Shown here piece after piece: positions 8,046 to 53,675 of a stretch of 64,000 nt of DNA. Positions within the stretch are counted from its first letter, which is position 1. Every line of letters begins with the position of its first letter. Made by a program: the position numbers and the translations under genes. This DNA comes from TPA_inf: Saccharomyces. Its lineage: Eukaryota. The stretch covers positions 32,001 through 96,000 of the forward strand of contig BK006939.2 in assembly GCA_000146045.2 (NCBI GenBank), written 5' to 3'. The notes beneath the pieces were generated by a model, which did no database searches, was not told where the DNA came from, and saw only the letters and a program-made list of their open reading frames with translations.

Positions 8046-9953
8046 TTAAATAATATTCAATTTATCAAGAATATCTCTCACTTGATCAAAGATTAAATCG
8101 GTCTTTGATCCAATGAATTCATCCATGTTCAATTCTTGCTTGAAACCAGATGAATGGGACTTTTTGGTATCATTCCAGAAAGCGGACAAATCTTGACCAC
8201 CACCGTTGTAGATTAAAACATTTGGAGTGTCTTCAGGGATATCGAACAAAATGTCCTTTGTACTGTAATGAATTAGCTTCTTTTTCAATTGCTGAGGAGT
8301 CAAAGAATCCTGGCCCAATTCGAAAAATTCACTATCAGAACCTGGTTGCAAAGACAAAAAGTAGGTCAACAAACCAGCAACGTGAGGGGAAGCCATTGAG
8401 GTACCCGATAAAGTGGCGGTGGCGTCATCACTTCCAATGTAGGTGGACAAAATGTTTAAACCTGGGGCGAAAACGTCGACACACTTACCCCAGTTGGAAA
8501 AGTAGGCTCTGTCATCGCTCAACGTGGAAGCTCCGACGGTGATGGCCTTGTCAGCAGAAGCTGGGGAGGTATTACAAGCGTCTTGGTTTTCGTTACCAGC
8601 AGCCACGGCAAAGTGAATACCGACTTCAACGGCTGCATTAACAGCCAAGTCCAAAGCTGGGGACTTGCCACCACCAAGCGACATATTGGCTGTGGAACCT
8701 TTGAACCCCTTTTTCTTTTCTTGGGCTTCTTTTTGGTGCGCCTTTGCGGCATATTCGACACCTTTGACGACATCAGACATGGTACCAGACCCGTTTGATC
8801 TCAAGACTTTCACCGCAACAACGTTGGCATTTTTAGCGACACCGTAGTGTTTGGAAGCGATAGTACCGGCACAGTGGGTACCGTGGCCGTTACCGTCGAG
8901 ATCTTCGTCGTTAAGTGGGATGGTTTTCCCCCAAATGGCTCTCTTTTCGAAGTCCTTGTGGTTGATGTTGACACCCGTGTCAATAACATAGGACGTGACA
9001 CCGCGACCGGCATCATCATCGTAGAGATACTTGTTGAAGGACCCCAGGTTGAGGCGCTCTCTGTGGGAAATACGGGCCAACCCCCATGGGGCGCTATTTT
9101 GAGTGTCAAATTCTGTAGCCTCGACAATAGAGTCTCTCTCAACAAAGTCTACTAATGGGTTTTGACGTATCAAGTCGACAATCTCTTGGGTGAAGTAACC
9201 GATGTAACCGGAGAAAAGATTATCGATGTTGAATGAGTCCTGGATACCGCCAGCCTCAGAGGTGGACAAGGAGGTGTCTTTAGTAGAAATGAAGAAAGCG
9301 TCTTCGGCAGATAAGTTCTCTACGGATTGAAGTTGTGCCTGCTGGACGTTTTCCTTGTGGAAATCGATCTCTTCTTGAGGGGCACCTCTCTTGAAGACTA
9401 TAATGTAGCGGTTGGGGATGATCTTGGAGATCGCGTCTGGGTTGAATTGTGCAGTGGACACGAGAGGAGCCAGCCTGTTGTGGTGCCTCCCTTTCTCCAA
9501 CGTCTTTTCGTGGTGCTTCTTGCCCTTGACTTTCTTACCTTTCATCTTCTTCTCCTCCACCTTATTTTCGTGGCAGCCACCCTTATGGTGAGGCTTCTTC
9601 TTCTTATCATCATTATCATCATCATTGGAACTTTCATGCTTAGGCTTCATGCCCTTTCCTCCCTCGTGGGCGCTCCCATGAGAGCCACTTGCACGTTTAC
9701 CGTTGAATTCCGGAGACTCCTTGTCTTGGCCCTTGCGGCCCTTCTTATGGAACTTTCCATGTTCTTTATCTTCAGAGTCAGATGGCTCCTCATCATCGTC
9801 CTTAGTGAATTCCACTTTTCTGGGTCTCTCGTGGTGATCTTCCTTGTTAATCAGTTCGTGGTGGTCGGCGGCATTTTCAAGATTTGGGATGACCAAAGCA
9901 GCAGAGATGCTCCCTAGGGCACCGAGTGTAAATAGAGTATTTTCTAACTTCAT
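8046..9953 (-). CDS. PRB1: Vacuolar proteinase B, subtilisin-family serine protease (635 aa)
   Basis: MKLENTLFTLGALGSISAALVIPNLENAADHH... Subtilase catalytic motifs (DTGV, HGTHCAG, GTSMASPHVAG). Length 635 aa as remembered for Prb1p. Confidence 0.96.
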   Translation of the reverse strand: MKLENTLFTLGALGSISAALVIPNLENAADHHELINKEDHHERPRKVEFTKDDDEEPSDSEDKEHGKFHKKGRKGQDKESPEFNGKRASGSHGSAHEGGKGMKPKHESSNDDDNDDKKKKPHHKGGCHENKVEEKKMKGKKVKGKKHHEKTLEKGRHHNRLAPLVSTAQFNPDAISKIIPNRYIIVFKRGAPQEEIDFHKENVQQAQLQSVENLSAEDAFFISTKDTSLSTSEAGGIQDSFNIDNLFSGYIGYFTQEIVDLIRQNPLVDFVERDSIVEATEFDTQNSAPWGLARISHRERLNLGSFNKYLYDDDAGRGVTSYVIDTGVNINHKDFEKRAIWGKTIPLNDEDLDGNGHGTHCAGTIASKHYGVAKNANVVAVKVLRSNGSGTMSDVVKGVEYAAKAHQKEAQEKKKGFKGSTANMSLGGGKSPALDLAVNAAVEVGIHFAVAAGNENQDACNTSPASADKAITVGASTLSDDRAYFSNWGKCVDVFAPGLNILSTYIGSDDATATLSGTSMASPHVAGLLTYFLSLQPGSDSEFFELGQDSLTPQQLKKKLIHYSTKDILFDIPEDTPNVLIYNGGGQDLSAFWNDTKKSHSSGFKQELNMDEFIGSKTDLIFDQVRDILDKLNII

Positions 9954-10399
9954 CTTTGCTTGTTAGAATTAGGTTTAGTTTGTTTTTTTATTGGCGATGA
10001 AGCTAATTGGACTCTTAAGTTTGTATGGGAAGAACTCCAATATAACGGGACGTAACATTGGCCCCCTTTTATATTCATCGCGCTCTTTATCGCGGGTGTG
10101 TTTGCCCCCGCCACTCCCGCAGTCCTGGCGTGATAAGCCACTGCAGTGGCATTACTGAGCCCAAATTTTGCTTTTTCAACAAGTCACCTAAATTTCCAAA
10201 GCCGAAAGCCCTGCTACTCTGCTAACCCGGAGCGTTTAAAGTCCACGGACATTTCCCAGCCCTCGTTTTTTCTCCTCCCGGGACCCCGGGCATAAGTGCA
10301 TAGTAGGCACAGACCTGATCTGTCGGGTGCAGTTTAAAAAAGTCTTGGCAAAATTTTTTATTTATCACACTACTGTGCTATATAGAGTATATGTAATTT

Positions 10400-10624
10400 T
10401 TAACTATTGGTATATGTGTCCGTGACCTCGTAGTTAGTGGCTGATTTGTCGGGTGCAATGCAGTGTTCAAAAAGCCTCTTAAAAGGCGAGCAGACGTATT
10501 CGGCTCCTTTGAATTGGCACTCCCATTGCACAAGCTCTTTCAGCCGGCAGTTGGTTTGTGAGTCAAGCGTTGCTAACGGTGCGAGCGCTTGGTCCCTAGT
10601 GCGGATGGTGGTTGGAGGCGCCAT
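10400..10624 (-). CDS. SOM1: Mitochondrial inner membrane peptidase complex subunit (74 aa)
   Basis: 74-aa ORF MAPPTTIRTRDQALAPLATLDSQTNCRLKELVQWECQFKG... Position between PRB1 and PCM1 and the length match YEL059C-A as I remember it. Confidence 0.75.
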   Translation of the reverse strand: MAPPTTIRTRDQALAPLATLDSQTNCRLKELVQWECQFKGAEYVCSPFKRLFEHCIAPDKSATNYEVTDTYTNS

Positions 10625-10651: not shown

Positions 10652-10960
10652 ATGAGTCTTTCTTTCCTTCTCTTTTCCCCTTTTCTCCCCCCCTGTTTCT
10701 CGTCCATCTCTATCTGTCTATCTGTCTTATCTACTGTTAGTTTTTTTTTCGCTTTCACGATACCGCATTACGTACTGCGCTGCGGAAGTGTGGATGAGTG
10801 GCATATACACTCTTCTGCAGAGGATTTTCGTACACAACGGTGTGTGTGTGCTGTGAAGCTGTCTGCTTCCTTACTTGGCTGTTTGCTTGCTTGTGCGTCA
10901 TGGTCACTTTTGTTAGAAGTGAGCCGCATAAAATGGCATGTCGGCACAGCCTACAGTTAA
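10652..10960 (+). CDS. HHY1: Dubious 102-aa ORF (YEL059W/HHY1 in SGD); low-complexity hydrophobic product, probably not a real protein
   Basis: ATG at 10652, 102 codons. Lies in the PRB1/SOM1-PCM1 intergenic region. Cys/Ser/Leu-rich with no recognisable domain. Confidence 0.15.
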   Translation: MSLSFLLFSPFLPPCFSSISICLSVLSTVSFFFAFTIPHYVLRCGSVDEWHIHSSAEDFRTQRCVCAVKLSASLLGCLLACASWSLLLEVSRIKWHVGTAYS

Positions 10961-19539: not shown

Positions 19540-20132
19540 TTTTTTTGTGGACAAAAAGATGCACTTGTGGAAAGAATCACCCTTGTTAATGGATACCCGA
19601 TTCAAACTTCGAATTAAGTGCAAACCGCAGCCTCAGATTAATGTTAAATTGCCCTCTAAGGCAATTCTGGCCATCGCAATAAAATTTTTCGTGTTATTCA
19701 CGCTTTAAAGGCCGGGTAAAATGATAGCGTCCGTTGATTTTGAAGACTATTACTTTTGCGGATATTTTATGTCCGGTCTATCATATTTACCAATGCAAAA
19801 TAATATTTTGATAGTTTTTACCGCAGAGGCAGCCAGTAAGTTGGGAAGTTGCTCAGACCCATAGATACATACGCAGGAAAGGTTTTGTTTTCCTCCTTTC
19901 ATTATTGCAATTAACGTATACATAACTTGAAAAGCTGATGGGTGTCAAGCACGCCCATCAGCGCATCTGAAAGTAGCCTTGAAGGAACTGTAAGTTTCCA
20001 CTTTTCGAATCAGTTATTGGTCGTCAACCATTAGCAGAAGTAAGTTCAGATATTTAGATATACCCTCCCTCAACTATAACGATTAACAAGTGTTTACGAA
20101 CTAATGTAACAGACCAATCCCAAGAGAGTACG

Positions 20133-20320
20133 TACTAAGAGAAAATGTAAGGCTATGAAATGGACTAATATAACCATAGTAGAAATAGGTATATCTTAGT
20201 GAGTAATCGCCTAAATTAATCTTGTTTGCAATATAAATTGGAACTAAGTACAGTGAAAGACATCGATGGAAATAAAAAAATAACCATCGAAACTTGGTCC
20301 CAGAGTGTTGTCAAACGTTC
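20133..20320 (-). ncRNA. SNR80: Candidate H/ACA-box snoRNA in the POL5-RPL12A gap; possibly SNR80
   Basis: On the minus-strand RNA there is a hairpin with a 7-bp upper stem (UCGAUGG/CCAUCGA, plus 20258-20292). After it comes an H-box-like AAACAAGA (plus 20221-20230). A second hairpin follows, then AUAgcc ending at about 20151, or ACAuuu ending at about 20133. I recall SNR80 at chrV ~52150-52320, which maps here. I could not fold the second hairpin convincingly, so treat the strand and ends as tentative. Confidence 0.3.
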
Positions 20321-20720
20321 AAGATGGTTTCTTTTCTAATAAAAAGCAAATTAGAAAACTATTTCACAAGTTAGTAATAATAGTAAAGAATCAAGCATGG
20401 AAAGCAAAGTAAGAAAAAAGAATGAAGTGAAAAGCAAAAAAAAAAAAAGATAAAAATGAAAAAACAAAAAAACGGAGGGTATAATCACATGCAGATATAA
20501 TTTTCGGAAATACATTATAGAAATATAATGTGTCACTTATCCTCTTCATTGTGGTTATCCAGAGAGGAAGAGAAGAGACAAAACAGATAGAAAAAGTATA
20601 ACCCTAGAATCGAAATCAAAAATTAGAAAATAAACGTATTGGAATTTTGTGCAATTATCATATTAAAATACAAAAACAATAAAAAAACTAAAAAGCTTTG
20701 AAACTTTCTTTAATTTTTTT

Positions 20721-21218
20721 CTAATTTTCTGGGATTTCGATTTCACCAGCATTAATGCCTTCAATGATATCATGGGGATTCTTGAAGTCAACACGACAGC
20801 CGACAGATTGAGCAGTACCTAAGATTTCCTTAGTAACGGAAGCCAAAGTTCTACCGAAGGATTTGTCTCTCATTTGTCTGGCAATTTCAATAATTTCATC
20901 CAATTGAATGTTACCACTGTGCTTGACGTTTTTGTCCTTCTTTCTGTCTCTTGGTGGTTCCTTCAAAGCAGTAATGACCAAAGAGGAAGCAGATGGGACA
21001 ACAGAGGCAGCAGCTTGTCTGTTTTGGATCTTTAATTGGACGGTAACCTTGATACCCTTGAATTCTTTGGTGGCCTTAGCAATATCTTCACCAACCTTCT
21101 TTGGCGATAGACCTAAAGGACCAATCTTTGGAGCCAAAGCAGCGGAGGCACCGACTTCACCACCAACGGCTCTTAGGTACAAGTATTTAACTTCATTAGG
21201 ATCAAACTTTGGAGGCAT
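20721..21218 (-). CDS. RPL12A: Ribosomal protein L12 (uL11), 165 aa, no intron
   Basis: [48 protein letters not shown]... Ribosomal L11 family. Length 165 aa. Confidence 0.96.
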
Positions 21219-21718
21219 TTTTGTATATCCTTTGTTCTTGTTGTCGACTTTCTAGACCCCAAAAGAAAGTTCCTTTAAGGTGTAATAGTAACGAACTGTA
21301 ACTCAAAGAAGCCTTGAAATTTACCAAAATTCTAGACTTTGAATAATTTTTTCAGTATTAGGAGATGTCCATTTCCAGCAGTGTTAACGGATTCCAAATT
21401 TTCTTCCGGGATTTTCCCTTCGGTTACCAAGAGTGTCTCTCCAGCTCTAGGGAGAGCCCAGGAGTAATTGCCGCCGCGTCCGCCTAAGTCTAGGCAGCAA
21501 GCCACAACTGTACGGACGGAACTCCCAGCCAAGTAAGTTTGGCCCGAACTCACAACGGGGGAACGCACTGCATTTTACCAGCTTACAACAATAACGCCGT
21601 TGTAGGCGGCTTGTAGGTACAATCGCAACGATATCTGGAGTAGATGGCATTGAAATTGAGCTGATACTGTTATAGTTTACAAGCAGTACATTGTCTCATT
21701 ACATTGTCTCTTTGTTTG

Positions 21719-21731
21719 ACACCCACACATA
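21719..21731 (+). promoter_or_regulatory. Rap1-binding-site match (ACACCCACACATA), about 500 bp upstream of RPL12A
   Basis: Exact fit to ACACCCRYACAYM. Ribosomal-protein genes are typically Rap1-driven. Confidence 0.35.
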
Positions 21732-21900
21732 TTTGGTGTTCGGATGTTAAACAGGGTATTTATCTTGTTTTAGACTGGTACGAATGGGATAATGGCATAA
21801 GGTGGCTTCATTTGTTTGAGTATAAAGGTCTCCTTTATAATAATTAAATAGCGGGTATATAATGCTAAATATATTTTGTACAGTTAGGGTAAATTCCAGA

Positions 21901-24102
21901 TTATTTATAGCGGTCTTGCTTTATTCTCAATGTTTGTATGGGGAAATAGTTCCATCCTTCTGTTGTATGAACTAATTCAACCTTGTATTCGTGGGAGTCC
22001 TTGTTTTTAATGTTCTTTTTCAAAGTGTTGACGATAACTTTTGAGTTGACTGATAATGCTTTAGAAGTATGTTTTAGTTTACAATAGTACTCCAGAGAGA
22101 GCTCTTGAACCAGTCTTGTTCCTGTTACTAGAACGCCGTTATTATCGCCTCCCTTGATTCCTTGCATTATCTCATCAATAGAACTAACGACATTGCGCAC
22201 TTCAGTTTCGATAAAGTTAGTGGCCCTTTCTAACTTTATATCAAATGCAGCTCCTTTTTCTTCAATGACAAAATCTTTTAAAGTTTGTTGAAATACTTCA
22301 TATTCTGGTAACTCAGGAACACCAATTGAATTAAATGGCTTGAATCTCAAATTATGGATTAACCGTTCATTAGAGAATTTTGACGGAGTACTATTCTTGT
22401 TGTCAATTAAACCAAATGACTTTAAAATTGCAAATTGGAAAACCTCTATTAGACATAAAGATTTGGTAATGTTAATTTCCTTCAAAAGATAGTTTAAAAA
22501 TTGTTTGGTAGCTTGTAATTGTTCCATTTCATTATCCATAGCAAACCTGTACTTTAGCCTCAATTGGTCCTTCTTTTCACCAGCTTTCAATTTTTTAAGT
22601 TTTTTGTTCATGGAATGAATGGCATTAATATTTGATTCAATATCATTTTGACTATCTTTCAAAAAGGTTTCTAAGTGGTGACTTAAATAATAAACATACC
22701 AAAACATAGAGTATGCTTCAAAGGGTTTGTAAATATCCAAATCAAACCCCTTTAAAGAGAATTCGATCATACTTGATAGTTTCATAAAATATGTCCACGA
22801 ACAGTAAACTTGTGAATTGACACTTTCAAACTGGGCTTGAAGAGAATCCCATAGAATAAGTTGCCTGTTAAAACCTTGTCTATATCTACATGTGTTTTGG
22901 GAGCAGTTTTGGTACCATTCTAAAAGCATATTAGAGCTTTCTTGGATAAGTTCATTACCAATAGAGGATTCAAATTCAGATGGAGTTTGTGCTGAAAACT
23001 CCTTGACATGTAGCAAATAAAATTGGGTATATGAAAATTTACCCAAAACTGTTCTGTCGTCTCTAATGAAAAATAAGGGGAATAAGATCCTTGCAATGAC
23101 ATGCCTTTGTTCCAACTTGTTGAAGAATTTGGCAAACTGGTAGGTCTCCAACGCAGACTCGGCTTTATCTACAAGGAGTATTGTTTTAACATCATTTGCC
23201 AGTGTAATAAAGCCGCTGTAATCCGTCGGTAACTTCGTAATCTTCCTGGGAGGGAATTGATTAGACCTGTGCTTTTGTATATATGTTGAGAACGCACCCT
23301 TTGGTGGAGACAGCTGTAATTGTGGAAATATGCCATTAACCGAGTTAGCGTTTTCAATTAGCTCATCCAGGTGGCTTGTCTTTGTGGAATAGTCTGTCAG
23401 ATGGTCTTCTAAGTGGACTAAGCAAATGATAATTTTTAGTATATGCTTCAGCATAGTTAAATGTAAGCTATCATCAGAATATGCCTCTAATATCTGAAGG
23501 CTCTCGGTGAGAGAATTGATAACAACATCTTGCCCCGGCAAATTATCGAATGTATTAAACCCCATGTTATTAAAATTTAAATCCTCCTCTTCAAAAACAA
23601 TACCAGCACTCAAGAGTTTCTGCACAAATTTTGTTAAATAACAAACGCCAAGTATGCAACTTCCTAGTACTTTATCATACAAAATATTCCCTGTACACCA
23701 GGACGAACCGGCAGTTGTTCCCTTAACTAATGACGATAATAAGCTTTCTGTATACCTGCAGCTTAATACAGTAGTGGGTAAAGTCTGGTAGTCATTCAGC
23801 CAGGAGATAACACATCTAAGTAATCTATCCGCTATGGCTGCTACACTTGCCAACGGTGGATCGTAGGCCACGTTCACATCAAATTCTATTTCTTCTGCTG
23901 TCAATTCTATCAGACTGGAGTCTAATTTGGAGTTGTTGACCTCTAAAGAATGTGTACCCTCGAACAAATCAAACCTGGGATCTTTCACGATAGCCTCTGG
24001 TTTTAGTTTTGAACACAATTCATCAAACAGACTTGTGACGTCAACCAATTGGTCAAAATCATCAGTTATGCTCAAGGAACCTAATATACTGTCTACTTCC
24101 AT
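21901..24102 (-). CDS. MAK10: NatC N-terminal acetyltransferase auxiliary subunit (733 aa)
   Basis: 733 aa from MEVDSILGSLSITDDFDQLVDVTSLFDELCSKLKPEAIVKDPRFD... (complement of ATG at 24100-24102). The track ORF starts 9 codons upstream at TTG. Confidence 0.88.
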   Translation of the reverse strand: MEVDSILGSLSITDDFDQLVDVTSLFDELCSKLKPEAIVKDPRFDLFEGTHSLEVNNSKLDSSLIELTAEEIEFDVNVAYDPPLASVAAIADRLLRCVISWLNDYQTLPTTVLSCRYTESLLSSLVKGTTAGSSWCTGNILYDKVLGSCILGVCYLTKFVQKLLSAGIVFEEEDLNFNNMGFNTFDNLPGQDVVINSLTESLQILEAYSDDSLHLTMLKHILKIIICLVHLEDHLTDYSTKTSHLDELIENANSVNGIFPQLQLSPPKGAFSTYIQKHRSNQFPPRKITKLPTDYSGFITLANDVKTILLVDKAESALETYQFAKFFNKLEQRHVIARILFPLFFIRDDRTVLGKFSYTQFYLLHVKEFSAQTPSEFESSIGNELIQESSNMLLEWYQNCSQNTCRYRQGFNRQLILWDSLQAQFESVNSQVYCSWTYFMKLSSMIEFSLKGFDLDIYKPFEAYSMFWYVYYLSHHLETFLKDSQNDIESNINAIHSMNKKLKKLKAGEKKDQLRLKYRFAMDNEMEQLQATKQFLNYLLKEINITKSLCLIEVFQFAILKSFGLIDNKNSTPSKFSNERLIHNLRFKPFNSIGVPELPEYEVFQQTLKDFVIEEKGAAFDIKLERATNFIETEVRNVVSSIDEIMQGIKGGDNNGVLVTGTRLVQELSLEYYCKLKHTSKALSVNSKVIVNTLKKNIKNKDSHEYKVELVHTTEGWNYFPIQTLRIKQDRYK

Positions 24103-31727: not shown

Positions 31728-32090
31728 ATGGTCAAATTAACTTCAATTGCCGCTGGTGTTGCCGCCATCGCTGCTACTGCTTCCGCAACCACCACTCTAG
31801 CTCAATCTGACGAAAGAGTCAACTTGGTTGAATTGGGTGTCTACGTATCTGATATCAGAGCTCATTTGGCTCAATACTACTCTTTCCAAGCTGCTCACCC
31901 AACTGAAACCTACCCAATTGAAGTTGCTGAGGCCGTTTTCAACTACGGTGACTTCACCACCATGTTGACTGGTATTGCCCCAGACCAAGTGACCAGAATG
32001 ATCACCGGTGTTCCATGGTACTCCAGCAGATTAAAGCCAGCCATTTCCAGTGCTCTATCCAAGGACGGTATCTACACTATCGCAAACTAG
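31728..32090 (+). CDS. PAU2: Seripauperin (PAU family cell-wall mannoprotein, 120 aa)
   Basis: [63 protein letters not shown]... is a typical PAU protein. Length 120 aa. Confidence 0.93.
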
Positions 32091-35628: not shown

Positions 35629-36792
35629 TCAGTATTTGTAGGTTTTTATTTCGCGGATAGCGTTGCCATCAACGTCGACCTCGGTGGATTCACTACGGTA
35701 AATCTGGGTAGGTCCGTTACAGTCGAAAGGATGTTCTTTAGCATAGTCGAAGGCCTCGGAGATGGCCAATTTGACTTTTTCCAAAGTATCTCTGGTGACT
35801 TGATAGTGGAACGAGACTCTACCACCCATTAGCTTAACGTTGTACTTCAAACCCTTCTTAACAAGGACATCTGGGTCCATTCTAGCGGCCTTCAGGTTAA
35901 TAAAGACAAAGTTGGTGTCTGCTGGAGACTCTAGCGGGATGCCCTTTGCCTCACAATATTCGGCTAATTCATGAGCCAAAGAGTGCGAGTACAGCAATTG
36001 GGACTTCCAATCGTTGTTGATGTTTACAAGAGCCATTCTAGCCATCATACCAGATTGTCTAATACCACCACCTTGTTGTTTTCTGAAATGGGTGGCCTTC
36101 TTGACAAACTTAAGGTTCCCAACCAAGACGGACCCAATAGGAGCACCCATAGACTTGGATAGACAGATGGAGATGGAGTCGAAGATTTCCCCATATTGCT
36201 TTAATGGCACGCCAGATTGTGCAGCGGCATTCCAGATTCTGGCACCGTCACAATGTAGTTTGAGACCATTTTCCATACACCAAGCTTTGATGCGGACCAG
36301 TTCTTCCAATGGATAAACAATACCGTGTAAAGTGTTTTCCAGAGAAATCAATCTGGTGGGGGCACCGTGAATATCACCGTCGTCTGGGACGTAGTGTGAC
36401 TTGATGTCTTCCAAGGTCAAGTAGTCACCGTTGGAAGGAACCACAGGAACCACCATCGCTTGAGACAAGATCGCCAGTCCAGCGGCTTCGTGAGTGTAAA
36501 CGTGAGCCCTGTAATCACATAGAATAGAGTATGGAGGTTGCATCAAGTGAGTTCTGATGGCAATCTGGTTGGACAAAGTCCCAGAGACACAGAACAAACC
36601 TGCTTCTTTGCCAGCCATGCGGGCAACGGTCTGTTCGAGCCTAACGGTGTCAACATCTTCACCGTAGACAGCGTCACCGATAGAGGCCTCTAAAGCGGCC
36701 TCCATCATCTCTGCAGTTGGAGTGGTGAATGTGTCTGACCGCAAGTCGTTAGCAGCGGTGATATATTTTGGAGGCAATTCGAATTCAGTCAT
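35629..36792 (-). CDS. GLY1: Threonine aldolase, PLP-dependent (387 aa)
   Basis: MTEFELPPKYITAANDLRSDTFTTPTAEMMEAALEASIGDAVYGEDVDTVRLEQ... Low-specificity threonine aldolase family. Length 387 aa. Confidence 0.95.
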   Translation of the reverse strand: MTEFELPPKYITAANDLRSDTFTTPTAEMMEAALEASIGDAVYGEDVDTVRLEQTVARMAGKEAGLFCVSGTLSNQIAIRTHLMQPPYSILCDYRAHVYTHEAAGLAILSQAMVVPVVPSNGDYLTLEDIKSHYVPDDGDIHGAPTRLISLENTLHGIVYPLEELVRIKAWCMENGLKLHCDGARIWNAAAQSGVPLKQYGEIFDSISICLSKSMGAPIGSVLVGNLKFVKKATHFRKQQGGGIRQSGMMARMALVNINNDWKSQLLYSHSLAHELAEYCEAKGIPLESPADTNFVFINLKAARMDPDVLVKKGLKYNVKLMGGRVSFHYQVTRDTLEKVKLAISEAFDYAKEHPFDCNGPTQIYRSESTEVDVDGNAIREIKTYKY

Positions 36793-37281
36793 TGTGTTTA
36801 TGTTTGCGTTTGTGTGCGGGAGTAAAAGTGAGTGTAAGCCTAGGAAAGGAGGTGGTTACGAACTAGCCAGCGGAAACAATGTACGTATATGTATGTAAGT
36901 ATTACTCTATACCAGACAGAACAAGATAGACGAGAAGGACACATGGAGGATTTGACAGGCAAGCTCAACACTTGCTTATATATATACACATATGTGCTAT
37001 TGCAAATGCAAAAAGCGTATATCCAGTGAAGAAAAAGACGAAAAAAGACGAAGAAATAAAAAGAAAAACCGGTGAACGAATATGGCAAGTGAAAAAGTGC
37101 GCAATGAGTAATACAAAGGGCGAAGCAGCGGGAAAAAAGAAACGGCGCTGCTGCCCGGAAACCGGAAGCGAAGCTTTGTGGGGTACGGGTGCATGCTCGG
37201 CTTTTTCCAGATAGGGGAAGTGCCGTCGCCAAAAAGGCAAGGGTCCGTTTCGCGTGACATTTCATAGCGGGCCAAGCGTGG

Positions 37282-37289
37282 GTCACGTG
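37282..37289. promoter_or_regulatory. Cbf1/Pho4-type E-box GTCACGTG inside a GC-rich block of the GLY1-IES6 intergenic region
   Basis: Exact RTCACRTG match (ggGTCACGTGct). 470 bp upstream of the IES6 ATG and 490 bp upstream of the GLY1 ATG. Confidence 0.35.
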
Positions 37290-37756
37290 CTGCACAGGCC
37301 TGCCGCTGGCATGATTTGTCAGCACATATACAACAAGAAGTATTGGTTGCGTTGAAGAAAAAAAGAATAGTAATAACAATTTGGGGCCGTGTGTAAAAAA
37401 AATAGGAAACAGCTACCCCGGCGTGCCGTGTGGCTCTCTGTGCGAAGGAAGGCCCTGTCGCCGCACATATTCGATGAATATCGATGACGACGACTACCTT
37501 CTGGTTGCATAGTTTATTAGTCTGTGCCTGTTCTTCGGCGAGTGAGTAGATGAAAGAAAGAATGAGTTAGAGAGAATTCTAGGCCAGGTTCGGCTTAGTT
37601 AAGCTTAGCTTACTTTGGGTTTACTTAGCGTGCTTTTTTTCTTCCGCGCTGAGACGGTGAGGAATGGAAGTGTAAAGAAGCGAACGAGGGAAAAAAAGTT
37701 GTGACCTAGGGGAAGGTTAAAATTGTCATCATCATCAGCGTGAGAAAGTCGAAACA

Positions 37757-38257
37757 ATGAGCGGTAGTAGGGGCAATAGCAGCAATAGTAGCGTCAGTAA
37801 TAATAGTAATAATAACAATAATAATGACGGGGGCGACGAGAGATTGCTGTTTCTAAGAAGCGTGGGCGAACGCAATGAAATTGGCTTTCCCTCTAGATTC
37901 AAGTCGGCGCATTACAAGAAACCGACAAGAAGACACAAATCAGCGAGGCAGTTGATCTCGGACGAAAACAAGCGGATCAACGCCTTGTTGACCAAGGCTA
38001 ACAAAGCTGCAGAGAGTTCTACTGCTGCTAGGCGACTTGTGCCCAAAGCGACGTACTTTAGCGTGGAAGCGCCACCGTCTATCAGGCCTGCCAAGAAGTA
38101 CTGCGATGTTACTGGGTTGAAGGGCTTCTACAAGTCGCCTACGAACAACATTCGGTATCACAACGCAGAAATCTATCAGTTAATCGTAAAGCCGATGGCC
38201 CCCGGCGTCGATCAGGAGTACTTAAAATTGAGAGGGGCCAACTTCGTTCTAAAATAG
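37757..38257 (+). CDS. IES6: INO80 chromatin-remodelling complex subunit, YL1-C domain (166 aa)
   Basis: MSGSRGNSSNSSVSNNSNNNNNNDGGDERLLFLRSVGERNEIGFPSRF...KKYCDVTGLKGFYKSPTNNIRYHNAEIYQLI (YL1 C-terminal motif). Length 166 aa. Confidence 0.9.
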   Translation: MSGSRGNSSNSSVSNNSNNNNNNDGGDERLLFLRSVGERNEIGFPSRFKSAHYKKPTRRHKSARQLISDENKRINALLTKANKAAESSTAARRLVPKATYFSVEAPPSIRPAKKYCDVTGLKGFYKSPTNNIRYHNAEIYQLIVKPMAPGVDQEYLKLRGANFVLK

Positions 38258-41770: not shown

Positions 41771-43327
41771 ATGGCGCCCATCTTTAGAAATTACCGGTTC
41801 GCTATCGGTGCTTTTGCCGTTATTATGCTCATTTTGTTGATTAAAACATCTTCCATCGGTCCACCTTCTATTGCACGTACAGTTACTCCTAATGCTAGTA
41901 TTCCCAAAACTCCGGAGGACATCTCTATCTTGCCCGTCAATGATGAACCAGGTTACCTTCAAGATTCGAAGACTGAACAAAACTATCCTGAGCTTGCCGA
42001 TGCTGTGAAGTCACAAACAAGTCAAACATGCAGCGAAGAACATAAGTATGTTATCATGATCGATGCCGGCTCTACCGGTTCCCGAGTACATATATACAAG
42101 TTTGACGTCTGTACTTCCCCACCTACATTACTTGATGAAAAATTCGACATGTTAGAGCCTGGTTTATCTTCTTTCGATACCGATTCCGTTGGTGCCGCTA
42201 ACTCCCTTGACCCATTACTGAAAGTAGCAATGAACTATGTCCCTATTAAGGCAAGAAGTTGTACTCCCGTTGCGGTGAAAGCTACTGCAGGCCTAAGACT
42301 CTTGGGTGATGCCAAATCTTCAAAAATTTTGAGCGCTGTAAGGGATCATTTGGAGAAGGACTATCCTTTCCCAGTTGTCGAAGGTGATGGTGTTTCCATC
42401 ATGGGCGGTGATGAAGAAGGTGTCTTCGCCTGGATTACTACAAACTACCTATTAGGTAATATCGGTGCTAATGGCCCCAAGTTACCTACTGCTGCCGTTT
42501 TTGACTTAGGCGGAGGGTCTACACAAATTGTTTTTGAGCCTACTTTCCCAATAAATGAAAAAATGGTCGATGGTGAGCATAAATTTGATTTGAAGTTTGG
42601 TGATGAAAATTACACCTTGTACCAATTTTCTCATCTAGGTTACGGTTTGAAGGAAGGAAGAAATAAAGTTAACTCTGTTCTTGTGGAAAATGCATTAAAA
42701 GACGGCAAAATATTGAAGGGTGATAACACTAAGACTCATCAATTGTCATCTCCATGCCTACCGCCTAAAGTTAATGCCACAAATGAAAAGGTTACATTAG
42801 AATCCAAGGAAACTTATACCATTGACTTTATAGGGCCGGACGAGCCAAGTGGTGCACAATGTAGATTTCTGACTGATGAAATTTTGAATAAAGATGCTCA
42901 GTGCCAGTCTCCACCATGCTCTTTCAATGGGGTTCACCAACCTTCTTTAGTTCGTACATTCAAAGAATCGAACGATATCTATATTTTCTCTTATTTCTAC
43001 GACAGAACCCGTCCATTGGGTATGCCCTTGTCCTTTACTTTGAATGAATTGAACGATTTGGCAAGAATAGTGTGTAAAGGCGAAGAAACTTGGAATAGTG
43101 TCTTCAGTGGCATTGCGGGGTCCCTAGATGAATTGGAAAGTGACTCGCACTTCTGTTTGGACTTATCTTTTCAAGTGTCCTTATTACATACGGGATATGA
43201 CATTCCATTACAAAGAGAATTGAGAACTGGAAAGAAAATTGCCAATAAAGAAATCGGTTGGTGTTTAGGTGCGTCATTACCATTGTTGAAAGCTGATAAC
43301 TGGAAATGTAAAATTCAATCAGCTTGA
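41771..43327 (+). CDS. GDA1: Golgi guanosine diphosphatase, apyrase/GDA1-CD39 family (518 aa)
   Basis: [28 protein letters not shown]... with apyrase conserved regions ([23 protein letters not shown]). Length 518 aa. Confidence 0.95.
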
Positions 43328-52552: not shown

Positions 52553-53044
52553 TATGGACGTACACTTTGCATGAAAGCCACAAGGAACTGTTTAATGGAG
52601 CGAAAAAAAGATGATGAGGGTAAATCGCACCAACACTCGCCTAGCAACTGAGTGATGAATGGTTTTGCAATGCTTGCTGTCTCTACTAACAGATCTTGGC
52701 GTTTTTGAATCGTGTAGTTATTTTTATTTATTTTTTTTATTTCATGTTTTCATGATTTCATCTTACGCAATTTTTTCACGATGAGACAAGGCGGGCGACC
52801 CCACACAAGAGGAAAATTGAACACAATGCGTTGGTAAAGGGATTACGAATTGATTAAACCAACATAGTGAGACAAGAAAAGAAAAGAAAAGAAAAGGAAA
52901 ATGAAAAAAAATAAAAAAAAGAAGGCAACTAGACCAGATGAGCCCGGTTCATTTCTATTCTCTGCAGTCACTGCTATTTTCATCAACAGCGCAGGCCAAG
53001 TTGAACGAGATAGTAGCAATCGTAAAAGGAACTAGCTAACTTCA

Positions 53045-53545
53045 TCATGAAAGTTTACCCTTTCTTGCCGCTACCCTTCTCGTTTGGCTGGTATTAGAGC
53101 ACAGCGGATATATCCGGCTCAACAGTATAAGTAACGATAAGTCCTGACCATTGGCTTCGTTCTGGTGGCATTTTCTCTGAGGGGTGAGAACAGCAAAACG
53201 GGAACGGCGACTTGGAGTAGTATAACGCTGTAGCTGGACGCTGAGGGGCCAAGGCCGGTAAAATTCTGCAACACCCAGACCTTGCTGCAGTGATATCATC
53301 CACCCATACCCCTCGATGTATTCCGTAGCGTTATATCGGGTCCGTGTGAGGCGACAAGGGACCTCCCGCACCGCACATACCGCAGGAGCTAAAAGAAACG
53401 CCGTCGCCCGAAAAAAAGTTTCGAAGGTGAAGGAACAGTGGTAATAAAAATTTTTTTCGTCGTCGTCGTCGATCGGCTTTTGGCCGCGTTGATCGTCGTG
53501 TTCCACGATTATATAATGCACAAGGTTTTTGCCATATCTTGACAT
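53045..53545 (-). CDS. UTR5: Uncharacterised ORF UTR5 (166 aa); coding status uncertain
   Basis: 166-codon ATG-initiated ORF MSRYGKNLVHYIIVEHDDQRGQKPIDDDDEKNFYYHCSF... in the YEL035C position. No recognisable domain. GC-rich for yeast. Its ATG is only 130 bp from the HYP2 ATG. Confidence 0.55.
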   Translation of the reverse strand: MSRYGKNLVHYIIVEHDDQRGQKPIDDDDEKNFYYHCSFTFETFFRATAFLLAPAVCAVREVPCRLTRTRYNATEYIEGYGWMISLQQGLGVAEFYRPWPLSVQLQRYTTPSRRSRFAVLTPQRKCHQNEANGQDLSLLILLSRIYPLCSNTSQTRRVAARKGKLS

Positions 53546-53675
53546 TGGAATCCCTCATTTCCTAAATTCCTCTCCTTCTATCAATTGCTTCCTTTCCTTC
53601 TTTCTAACGATTCTACTTCTGTAGCCAATTACTCATAGACTCCCAAACACACACAAATACCAACTCATATATACA

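Follow-up and report, generated by a model that had tools for sequence, protein, structure and literature searches.

The G+C-rich island of the RPL12A promoter: very probably the IVR of an Hmo1-enriched ribosomal protein gene promoter

Layout and composition of the interval between RPL12A and MAK10

The stretch of yeast DNA analyzed here (64,000 nucleotides, hereafter the window) contains RPL12A and, upstream of it on the same strand, MAK10, whose 3' end bounds the RPL12A promoter. YEL054C has been placed at chrV 52721..53218 (PMC7357790 Table S4), which fixes the offset of the window at 32000. A first-pass annotation had singled out a block at 21420-21640 as GC-rich and dense in palindromes, and correctly placed it between the RPL12A ATG (21218) and a Rap1 site (21719), ahead of MAK10 (21901); its description of that Rap1 site as perfect is likewise accurate (ACACCCACACAT, 0 mismatches). 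The features of the locus are as follows.

20145-20320, minus strand: snR80, an H/ACA snoRNA and the nearest ncRNA gene (Rfam, 223 bits)
20721..21218, minus strand: coding sequence of RPL12A, 165 aa, whose expression the promoter drives (ORF list; an identical protein is annotated Ribosomal_L11)
21219..21405, minus strand: AT-rich core promoter and 5'UTR, 187 bp, 32.6% GC (composition and conservation)
21406..21640, no strand assigned: G+C-rich island, very probably the intervening region (IVR), 235 bp, 54.5% GC (composition, geometry and literature match)
21436..21455, no strand assigned: imperfect palindrome TCTCTCCAGCTCTAGGGAGA, in which pyrimidines, CTAG and purines follow one another, lying at the island's end nearest the gene; of uncertain significance
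21480..21487, minus strand: IFHL-like motif TTAGGCGG, matching CTAGGCGG at 7 of 8 positions; the plus strand holds CCGCCTA
21490..21497, plus strand: IFHL-like motif CTAGGCAG, head-to-head with the motif at 21480..21487 (motif scan)
21602..21609, plus strand: IFHL-like motif GTAGGCGG, at the end of the island that faces the Rap1 sites (motif scan)
21641..21718, no strand assigned: AT-rich gap separating the island from the Rap1 sites, 78 bp, 33.3% GC (composition)
21719..21730, plus strand: Rap1 site ACACCCACACAT, part of the UAS (0 mismatches)
21736..21747, minus strand: second Rap1 site ACATCCGAACAC, directed at RPL12A (sequence)
21901..24102, minus strand: MAK10 coding sequence, the upstream neighbor (ORF list; homologs annotated Mak10)

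The two Rap1 sites lie on opposite strands, separated by 5 bp, at about 500 bp from the RPL12A ATG; measured to the start of the island, the nearer is 79 bp away and the farther 107 bp. In an alignment of six species, the TGGGTG core of the site at 21719..21730 is unchanged, and AACATCCGTACA of the site at 21736..21747 is kept. At the other end of the promoter, the AT-rich stretch at 21219..21405 is presumed, from the published promoter model, to be where the pre-initiation complex (PIC) assembles and where the +1 nucleosome has its edge.

Exact counting gives the block at 21420-21640 a GC content of 54.3%, close to the earlier estimate of about 55%, and the best-scoring GC island runs from 21406 to 21630 (55.1% GC) or to 21640 (54.5% GC). 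The sharp contrast in composition that had been claimed between the block and its flanks also holds (54.3% vs about 33%). Specifically, GC content is 32.6-34.3% on the gene side (21219 to 21405 or 21419) and 33.3-33.5% on the Rap1 side (21641 to 21718 or 21900). Across the 64 kb, only 0.65% of all 221-bp intervals have a GC content as high as that of the block; outside long ORFs, where the mean is 37.2% (sd 6.2%), the fraction is 0.61% and the block stands at z = 2.8. Two further GC islands outside ORFs are found in the 64 kb, at 9993-10357 and 37089-37310.

Motifs and palindromes within the island

The consensus of the IFHL motif has been reported as CTAGGCGG (Lavoie 2010, PMC2834713), and at no more than one mismatch it occurs three times in the block, compared with 0.31 occurrences expected from shuffles of the block (P = 0.0045). 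CCGCCTA is found twice, compared with 0.05 expected. Two of the IFHL-like motifs, those at 21480..21487 and 21490..21497, form a head-to-head pair that is itself the palindrome GCCTAAGTCTAGGC; the motif at 21490..21497 reads CTGCCTAG in gene orientation and is kept in four of six Saccharomyces species, with S. kudriavzevii and S. uvarum differing. Read towards the gene, the motif GTAGGCGG (21602..21609) follows the nearer Rap1 site by about 110 bp; S. mikatae keeps it, and S. paradoxus has it nearly unchanged. The minimal IFHL element GGCNG shows no enrichment in the block beyond that given by composition (5 vs 2.8 expected, P = 0.14), and the Fhl1 motif YKYGCGTC is absent from the block at up to one mismatch, the GACGC core alone being present. 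Published mutagenesis indicates that single IFHL motifs add little to Hmo1 binding. Elsewhere in the window, CCGCCTA occurs at 42507 and 42761, but this candidate for a second IFHL pair was rejected, as both copies lie inside a 518-aa ORF and their occurrence is therefore taken as chance.

All three of the inverted repeats named by the first-pass annotation are present in the block, and short inverted repeats are more numerous there than in dinucleotide-preserving shuffles. With arms of at least 4 bp and loops of at most 12, the block contains 25, compared with 11.6 +/- 4.0 in the shuffles, of which 1 in 1000 reached 25; with arms of at least 5 bp, it contains 8, compared with 2.9 (P = 0.03). 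The longest arm in the block is 6 bp, and as many repeats with 5-bp arms occur in 12% of the 235-bp intervals of the 64 kb. The short palindromes are taken to be mostly by-products of IFHL motifs lying in two orientations and of CTAG cores. The imperfect palindrome at 21436-21455 is kept in six species and contains two covarying positions; sister species have lost or disrupted the others. Explicit pair counting shows 91% of cells paired in its helix vs 88% in shuffles; shuffled sequences pair so readily because pyrimidines on one arm stand opposite purines on the other, and the palindrome is for this reason weak evidence.

The island in other RPL12 promoters

Eleven promoters were examined: RPL12A of S. 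cerevisiae, S. paradoxus, S. mikatae, S. kudriavzevii, S. uvarum and S. eubayanus, RPL12B of S. cerevisiae and S. paradoxus, and the RPL12 promoters of Z. rouxii, L. thermotolerans and N. dairenensis. Orthologous promoters were located through homologs of MAK10, because lookup of the Rpl12 protein returned only RPL12B loci. In C. glabrata, RPL12 has been lost from beside MAK10. In each of the eleven, an island of 52-64% GC, about 100 to 480 bp upstream of the ATG, separates a Rap1-like site from an AT-rich core, so that no lineage-restricted presence of the island was seen. IFHL-like motifs were found in 9 of the 10 promoters scanned, and the S. kudriavzevii island contains no CTAGGCGG-like motif within one mismatch.

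Conservation in related Saccharomyces, for which it had been proposed to look, was not borne out at the level of primary sequence. Identity of the island to that of S. cerevisiae is 67% in S. paradoxus, 60% in S. mikatae, 48% in S. kudriavzevii and 39% in S. uvarum, whereas the proximal region at 21219..21405 retains 94%, 88%, 69% and 75%, respectively. Polarized substitutions within the island number 33 S>W and 38 W>S, counts that come from a region that is hard to align and whose adjacent gap gives odd values; their balance suggests that the GC content of the island is being held rather than decaying. Composition appears to outweigh exact sequence, which would explain why the island stays in place and G+C-rich even as its bases are replaced. 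Both Kasahara 2011 (PMC3105432) and Reja 2015 (PMC4579351) have proposed that Hmo1 reads composition or DNA shape and not a precise site, a proposal that held composition with sequence turnover fits and to which it lends small added support.

The closest likeness within the same genome is the promoter of the paralog RPL12B (YDR418W), in which a Rap1-like site at about -507 is followed by a 163-bp island of 57% GC at -302..-140 that carries a head-to-head IFHL pair, TCCGCCTAAG ... CTCTAGGCCG. Published values for this gene are an Hmo1 percentile of 70 and an hmo1Δ mRNA level of 0.44. Compared with that of RPL12A, the RPL12B island is shorter and nearer the ATG, and beyond the motifs nothing in the two can be aligned.

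These comparisons bear directly on three readings of the block that would set it apart from known promoter elements. Its sharp compositional contrast with the flanks would suit DNA left behind by an ancient insertion and now without function, for instance part of a Ty LTR, a degenerate tRNA gene or a piece gained by horizontal transfer. Yet an equivalent island occupies this promoter position in RPL12B, the WGD paralog, as well as in Z. rouxii and L. thermotolerans, both pre-WGD species, and therefore predates these lineages. Maintained GC content (33 S>W vs 38 W>S) and the dependence of RPL12A expression on a factor that binds such regions also speak against a relic, ARAGORN finds no tRNA within 20000-23000, and a blastn-short comparison of the block with the rest of the 64-kb window returns no match longer than 12 nt, and chance matches only. 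An insertion relic, one of the origins offered by the first-pass annotation, is thus contradicted by the island of the paralog and of distant species, with neither a tRNA nor a second copy in the window in its favor, and is considered extremely unlikely. Coding constraint on a small protein might likewise have raised GC content, and ORFs of 40-78 aa do cross the block, including a 67-aa ATG ORF (21447-21650, minus strand) and a 78-aa GTG ORF (21332-21568, minus strand). That only short ORFs cross the block had been rightly noted. S. paradoxus, S. mikatae, S. kudriavzevii and S. uvarum all lack an equivalent of the 67-aa ORF, and indels in the alignment are not multiples of three, leaving the chance that the block encodes a protein close to nil.

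A structured ncRNA, or a structured part of a transcript that is antisense or initiated upstream, would make helices of the palindromes, in keeping with an abundance of short inverted repeats about twice that of shuffles and with the 8-bp imperfect hairpin at 21436-21455, in which two positions have changed on both sides among the six species that keep it. The near-equal pairing of shuffled versions of that hairpin weighs against this reading, as does the identity of the island across species, which resembles that of neighboring non-coding DNA and not that of the conserved core promoter. Moreover, the folding energy of the block is no better than that of shuffles (MFE z of -1.36 on the minus and -0.44 on the plus strand), and RNAalifold run on five orthologs gives an unfavorable covariation term on either strand (+1.52 and +1.40), at the low power afforded by six species at most. 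An Rfam scan of 20000-23000 at E<=1 returns no match in the block, only snR80 and a chance match to rncO elsewhere. Both snR80 and the block are non-coding and adjoin RPL12A, and snR80 also lies on the RPL12A strand, but snR80 scores 223 bits at 32% GC, while the block has no Rfam match and no support from folding or covariation. Together with low sequence conservation, these results run counter to the earlier suggestion of a structured ncRNA, which is judged very unlikely.

Identity of the element and its proposed working

The block is very probably the IVR of the RPL12A promoter, and RPL12A an Hmo1-enriched (category I) ribosomal-protein (RP) gene; it is, in other words, a promoter element of a kind already described. 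Hmo1-enriched RP promoters have a long, G+C-rich IVR, with a class mean of 48.6% as compared with 36.1% in the Hmo1-limited class (PMC3105432). In the category I layout, Rap1 is followed by an A/T-rich gap of about 70 bp, and Hmo1 begins about 90 bp downstream (PMC4579351); promoters of this category contain multiple degenerate Hmo1 motifs (PMC4117944; review PMC8421047). They usually have two neighboring Rap1 sites and, in their G+C-rich DNA, IFHL-type motifs, of which there are often several, on either strand. Consistent with this description, the island lies between the Rap1 UAS and the RPL12A core promoter, two Rap1 sites stand adjacent, a 78-bp gap at 33.3% GC places the island 79 and 107 bp from them, the IVR is long and of raised GC (54.5% over 235 bp), and several IFHL-type motifs occupy both strands of this G+C-rich DNA. 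Of the three options originally offered, a promoter element therefore stands, ncRNA and insertion relic do not, and the qualifier "unusual" is also to be dropped, as what is seen is a standard G+C-rich, IFHL-bearing IVR. The accompanying premise that RP promoters are T-rich at this position fails for the Hmo1-enriched half of them.

Published measurements on the gene itself agree with this assignment, showing high Hmo1 occupancy as well as Hmo1 dependence of both mRNA level and Fhl1 binding. RPL12A is listed with an Hmo1 percentile rank of 92.7, an occupancy of 39642 and two Rap1 sites at a distance of 6 bp (Reja 2015 Table S2, PMC4579351). In hmo1Δ, RPL12A mRNA falls to 0.367 of wild type (about 63% lost), and its Fhl1 ChIP-seq signal falls from 27.7 to 6.96 (25%), placing it in group c (Kasahara 2020). 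From the geometry of the class together with the occupancy of the gene, we infer that Hmo1 and Fhl1 would lie on exactly 21406-21640.

The characterized IVRs of RPS5 and RPL27B offer a close parallel, in that several Hmo1 molecules are bound, the nucleosome-depleted region (NDR) is masked and dependence on Hmo1 is observed (Kasahara 2011, PMC3105432), as it is for RPL12A mRNA (0.37 in hmo1Δ); relative to that class, the RPL12A IVR (54.5% GC, 235 bp) falls at the GC-rich end. The FIS/Hmo1 zone of category I promoters (PMC4117944; PMC4579351) is matched by RPL12A in its two Rap1 sites, gap of about 70 bp and IFHL motifs on both strands. Differences from that zone are also evident, as the RPL12A block is without YKYGCGTC within one mismatch, and its 235-bp island is longer than the averaged 'broad' Hmo1 interval of about 160 bp (Reja 2015, PMC4579351).

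Hmo1 has been reported to mask the IVR and so to steer placement of the PIC (Kasahara 2011, PMC3105432). Carried over to RPL12A from the published model, the working of the element would begin with the opening of the promoter by Rap1, after which multiple copies of the HMG-box protein Hmo1 would come to lie across the G+C-rich stretch, where the protein appears to recognize composition, DNA shape and degenerate GGC-type motifs and not one precise site. Hmo1 may then spread the Fhl1/Ifh1/Sfp1 complex over the same DNA. The resulting protein coat would mask the long NDR, leaving the downstream AT-rich core promoter as the only place for PIC assembly, and would also, by acting as a barrier, set the position of the +1 nucleosome. 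Under stress, departure of Hmo1 would allow the +1 nucleosome to shift upstream, and the gene would be repressed.

A variant of this explanation retains the element and changes its occupant: the island may be nucleosome-favoring DNA holding one or two unstable ('fragile') RSC-bound nucleosomes that set RPL12A output. At every RPG promoter, MNase-sensitive nucleosomes that coincide with Fhl1/Ifh1 and Hmo1 have been described between -1 and +1 (Knight 2014, PMC4117944), nucleosomes assembled in vitro prefer the G+C-rich stretch (Reja 2015, PMC4579351), and the 235 bp of the island correspond to about one nucleosome with its linker. Against these observations stands the conclusion that nucleosomes are constitutively absent from the region in vivo, the MNase-resistant particles being FIS/Hmo1 complexes (Reja 2015, PMC4579351), and the fragile-nucleosome view has been called controversial in a 2021 review (PMC8421047). 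Sequence alone does not separate fragile nucleosomes from an Hmo1/Fhl1 coat, and the former are regarded as a possible, though on balance unlikely, occupant of the RPL12A island.

Within the IVR assigned here, one or other palindrome might have a more particular role that goes beyond composition. Either TCYYYCTAG-N3-TRGRRRGA (21436-21455) or the IFHL dyad CnGCCTnG-N2-yTAGGCnG (21480-21497), the latter of which is seen again at RPL12B of S. paradoxus and RPL12 of L. thermotolerans, might serve as a site for a dimeric factor or as a structural cue that nucleates Hmo1/Fhl1 binding, a proposal considered improbable. If true, such sub-elements would bear on what gives Fhl1, Ifh1 and Hmo1 their specificity for RP promoters. 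As for the island as a whole, a sharply bounded, G+C-rich and motif-dense stretch is what is expected in the Hmo1-dependent half of yeast RP promoters, and its occurrence upstream of RPL12A is therefore not anomalous.

Layout and composition of the RPL12A promoter

Exact counting places the GC content of the block at 21420-21640, put at ~55% by the hand estimate of the first-pass annotation, at 54.3%. The best-scoring island extends over 21406-21630 or 21406-21640 (55.1 and 54.5% GC, respectively), and the claimed difference from its flanks holds when computed exactly, with ~55% GC in the island versus ~33% outside it (32.6% at 21219-21405 and 33.3% at 21641-21718); the 200-bp GC profile rises and falls abruptly at the block. 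Of all 221-bp windows in the 64 kb, only 0.65% have a GC content this high, and nearly all of those apart from the block lie within long ORFs; relative to windows outside ORFs of at least 150 aa (mean 37.2%, sd 6.2%), the block has a z-score of 2.8 and falls in the top 0.61%. The same non-ORF tail also holds two further islands. One, at 37089-37310, is the most GC-rich 221-bp window in the 64 kb (57.5%). It overlaps no long ATG ORF, sits in the divergent intergenic region between ORFs 35629-36792 (minus strand) and 37757-38257 (plus strand), and includes a GTCACGTG box. The other, at 9993-10357 (54.8% GC, outside long ORFs), is directly upstream of a 635-aa ORF at 8046-9953 (minus strand), with small ORFs beyond it at 10400-10624 (minus strand) and 10652-10960 (plus strand).

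The gene context described earlier was confirmed, with RPL12A at 20721-21218 and MAK10 at 21901-24102, both on the minus strand, and only short ORFs (40-78 aa) across the block. The Rap1 site reported at 21719 is an exact match to ACACCCRYACAY; it is one of two sites, 5 bp apart, which open the following series along the direction of RPL12A transcription and lead to the ATG:

21747-21736, minus strand (the RPL12A transcription strand): Rap1 site ACATCCGAACAC
21719-21730, strand opposite to RPL12A: Rap1 site ACACCCACACAT
21641-21718: AT-rich gap of 78 bp between the Rap1 sites and the island
21406-21640: GC island of 235 bp
21219-21405: AT-rich stretch of 187 bp between the island and the RPL12A ATG

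Since YEL054C lies at chrV 52721..53218 (PMC7357790), the window offset is 32000 and the island corresponds to chrV 53406-53640. Elsewhere at the locus, the known full-length H/ACA snoRNA gene snR80 (20145-20320, minus strand; Rfam RF01269, 223 bits, E = 9e-41) follows RPL12A on its own strand, ~400 bp past the stop codon. A 115-aa ATG ORF antisense to the RPL12A coding sequence (20908-21255, plus strand) most likely arises as a shadow ORF from the strongly biased RPL12A frame.

Feature by feature, this promoter agrees with the described class of Hmo1-enriched (category I) ribosomal-protein promoters. In that class, several Hmo1 molecules bind a nucleosome-depleted, G+C-rich intervening region (IVR) between the Rap1 sites and the core promoter, and without Hmo1 the PIC and TSS shift upstream into the IVR (Kasahara 2011, PMC3105432). 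By ChIP-exo, a ~70-bp A/T-rich gap follows Rap1, and Hmo1 begins ~90 bp downstream of Rap1 and spans 110-160 bp (Reja 2015, PMC4579351), an average broad footprint which the 235-bp island exceeds. At category I promoters, degenerate Hmo1 motifs occur in multiple copies and on either strand (Knight 2014, PMC4117944).

Motifs and inverted repeats

The IFHL motif class, tied to Hmo1 at such promoters, has the consensus CTAGGCGG (Lavoie 2010, PMC2834713). The island contains three 7/8 matches to CTAGGCGG:

21480-21487, minus strand: IFHL-like motif
21490-21497, plus strand: IFHL-like motif
21602-21609, plus strand: IFHL-like motif

Shuffles of the GC-rich block itself yield an expectation of 0.31 such matches (P = 0.0045), and the CCGCCTA core occurs twice versus 0.05 expected. 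Because the whole 64 kb holds only 19 matches, the Poisson probability of three within 130 bp is ~4e-5. GGCNG is not enriched in the block beyond its composition, and no canonical Fhl1 motif was found there with up to one mismatch allowed. An inverted CCGCCTA pair at 42507-42513 and 42761-42767, 254 bp apart, was considered as a second IFHL pair; it falls within a 518-aa plus-strand ORF (41771-43327) and is treated as a chance occurrence.

All three inverted repeats named previously are present, and the palindrome GCCTAAGTCTAGGC consists of two IFHL motifs arranged head-to-head, forming the dyad CnGCCTnG-NN-yTAGGCnG with a 2-bp spacer (21480-21497). This dyad recurs in S. paradoxus RPL12B (about -231..-214 from the ATG) and L. 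thermotolerans RPL12 (about -209..-192); in S. cerevisiae RPL12B the two motifs are arranged likewise but separated by an 11-bp spacer, and some orthologs lack the dyad. The block has about twice as many short inverted repeats as its dinucleotide shuffles (arms of at least 4 nt, 25 versus 11.6 +/- 4.0; arms of at least 5 nt, 8 versus 2.9), with no arm longer than 6 nt, and 12% of same-size windows across the 64 kb hold as many 5-nt-arm repeats. Six Saccharomyces species keep an imperfect palindrome, TCTCTCCAGCTCTAGGGAGA at 21436-21455 (TCYYYCTAG...TRGRRRGA), in which the CTAG core never varies and two positions have changed on both sides. This palindrome and the recurrent dyad are more probably by-products; that they are specific sub-sites is unlikely.

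Evolution of RPL12 promoters

Orthologs of the MAK10-RPL12A intergenic region were reached via MAK10 homologs and RPL12B loci via the Rpl12 protein, with distant syntenic RPL12 loci from Z. rouxii, L. thermotolerans and N. dairenensis; S. eubayanus joined at a later alignment stage, and ten promoters were scanned for motifs. Every RPL12 promoter compared has a GC island (52-64%, in genomes with a local background of 33-47%), flanked by a Rap1-like site on one side and an AT-rich proximal region on the other. IFHL-like motifs occur in nine of the ten islands scanned, the S. kudriavzevii island having no good match.

Across Saccharomyces, the island spans about -410 to -190 relative to the ATG with 50-56% GC, and its identity to S. 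cerevisiae is 67, 60, 48 and 39% in S. paradoxus, S. mikatae, S. kudriavzevii and S. uvarum, versus 94, 88, 69 and 75% in the same species for the proximal 187 bp. This proximal promoter/5'UTR (21219-21405) is AT-rich and unusually well conserved, carries two copies of the octamer GTCTAGAA, and is nearly invariant among six species over the final ~50 bp upstream of the ATG; the proximal region of RPL12B is unrelated to it in sequence. When substitutions in the island are polarised by parsimony, strong-to-weak and weak-to-strong changes balance (33 versus 38). The yeast mutation spectrum is roughly two-fold AT-biased; if that bias is assumed, ~70% strong-to-weak changes are expected at the island's GC content, giving the observed split a binomial probability of 3e-5. 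Poor alignment of the region and odd counts in the neighbouring gap make this result suggestive at most.

Composition and position are thus conserved while sequence and motifs turn over, in an architecture common to the paralog. In Z. rouxii, the gene order SYF1-AFG1-MAK10-RPL12-RAD30 merges the S. cerevisiae neighbours of RPL12A (AFG1-MAK10-RPL12A) with those of RPL12B (SYF1-RPL12B-RAD30), as would be expected of a pair kept from the whole-genome duplication. The place of AFG1, upstream of MAK10, is taken from the orthologous Saccharomyces loci. C. glabrata no longer has the RPL12 copy beside MAK10.

Rival readings and a proposed role for Hmo1

Conserved composition with sequence turnover is the prediction of a multi-copy binder reading composition or shape; neither an RNA gene nor a decaying insertion, two of the origins originally proposed, predicts it. 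A structured RNA is not supported: the block has no Rfam match at E<=1, whereas nearby snR80 scores 223 bits, its MFE z-scores are -1.36 and -0.44, and RNAalifold gives a positive covariation term for each strand. The one local element that persists, the six-species palindrome at 21436-21455, is weak evidence for RNA structure, as its arms pair in 91% of cells versus 88% in shuffled partners, a statistically indistinguishable value that is high because a run of pyrimidines lies opposite a run of purines. Nor is a small protein supported, the 67-aa ATG ORF being missing in all four other Saccharomyces species checked. The relic of an insertion, or a repeat, likewise finds no support, given that a tRNA search of the block region returned none, no second copy lies within the 64-kb window, and the island is older than the whole-genome duplication. 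It is disputed in the field whether such an island carries a fragile nucleosome instead of a protein coat; the element is the same either way.

By analogy with RPS5, RPL27B and class averages, we infer that Rap1 would open the promoter and that several Hmo1 molecules would coat the island, broadening Fhl1/Ifh1/Sfp1 binding. This coat would exclude the PIC from the long nucleosome-depleted region, steer it to the AT-rich core promoter and act as an upstream barrier for the +1 nucleosome, which would slide upstream upon Hmo1 loss under stress. GGCNG, the Fhl1 motif, the S. kudriavzevii IFHL result and island length do not fit an Hmo1 platform perfectly. The layout, composition, motif enrichment and evolutionary pattern of the island are established at the level of sequence, and high Hmo1 occupancy together with Hmo1-dependent Fhl1 binding and mRNA level has been demonstrated by others for RPL12A itself. 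Specifically, RPL12A is listed with two Rap1 sites (distance 6), an Hmo1 occupancy of 39642 (genes with two sites have a median of 21852), and percentile ranks of 44 (Rap1), 63 (Fhl1), 65 (Ifh1), 50 (Sfp1) and 92.7 (Hmo1; Reja 2015 Table S2, PMC4579351). In hmo1Δ cells, mRNA relative to wild type is 0.367 for RPL12A and 0.444 for RPL12B, versus 1.02 and 0.90 for the Hmo1-independent RPL10 and RPL11A, and the Fhl1 ChIP-seq signal at RPL12A, which belongs to group c as does RPS5, falls from 27.7 to 6.96, leaving 25% of it (Kasahara 2020, PMC7357790).

Taken together, of the remaining suggestion, an unusual promoter element, the promoter element stands and the unusualness does not: the block is an already known kind of element, a member of the well-described Hmo1-enriched class, and published tables already show RPL12A itself to be strongly targeted by Hmo1.
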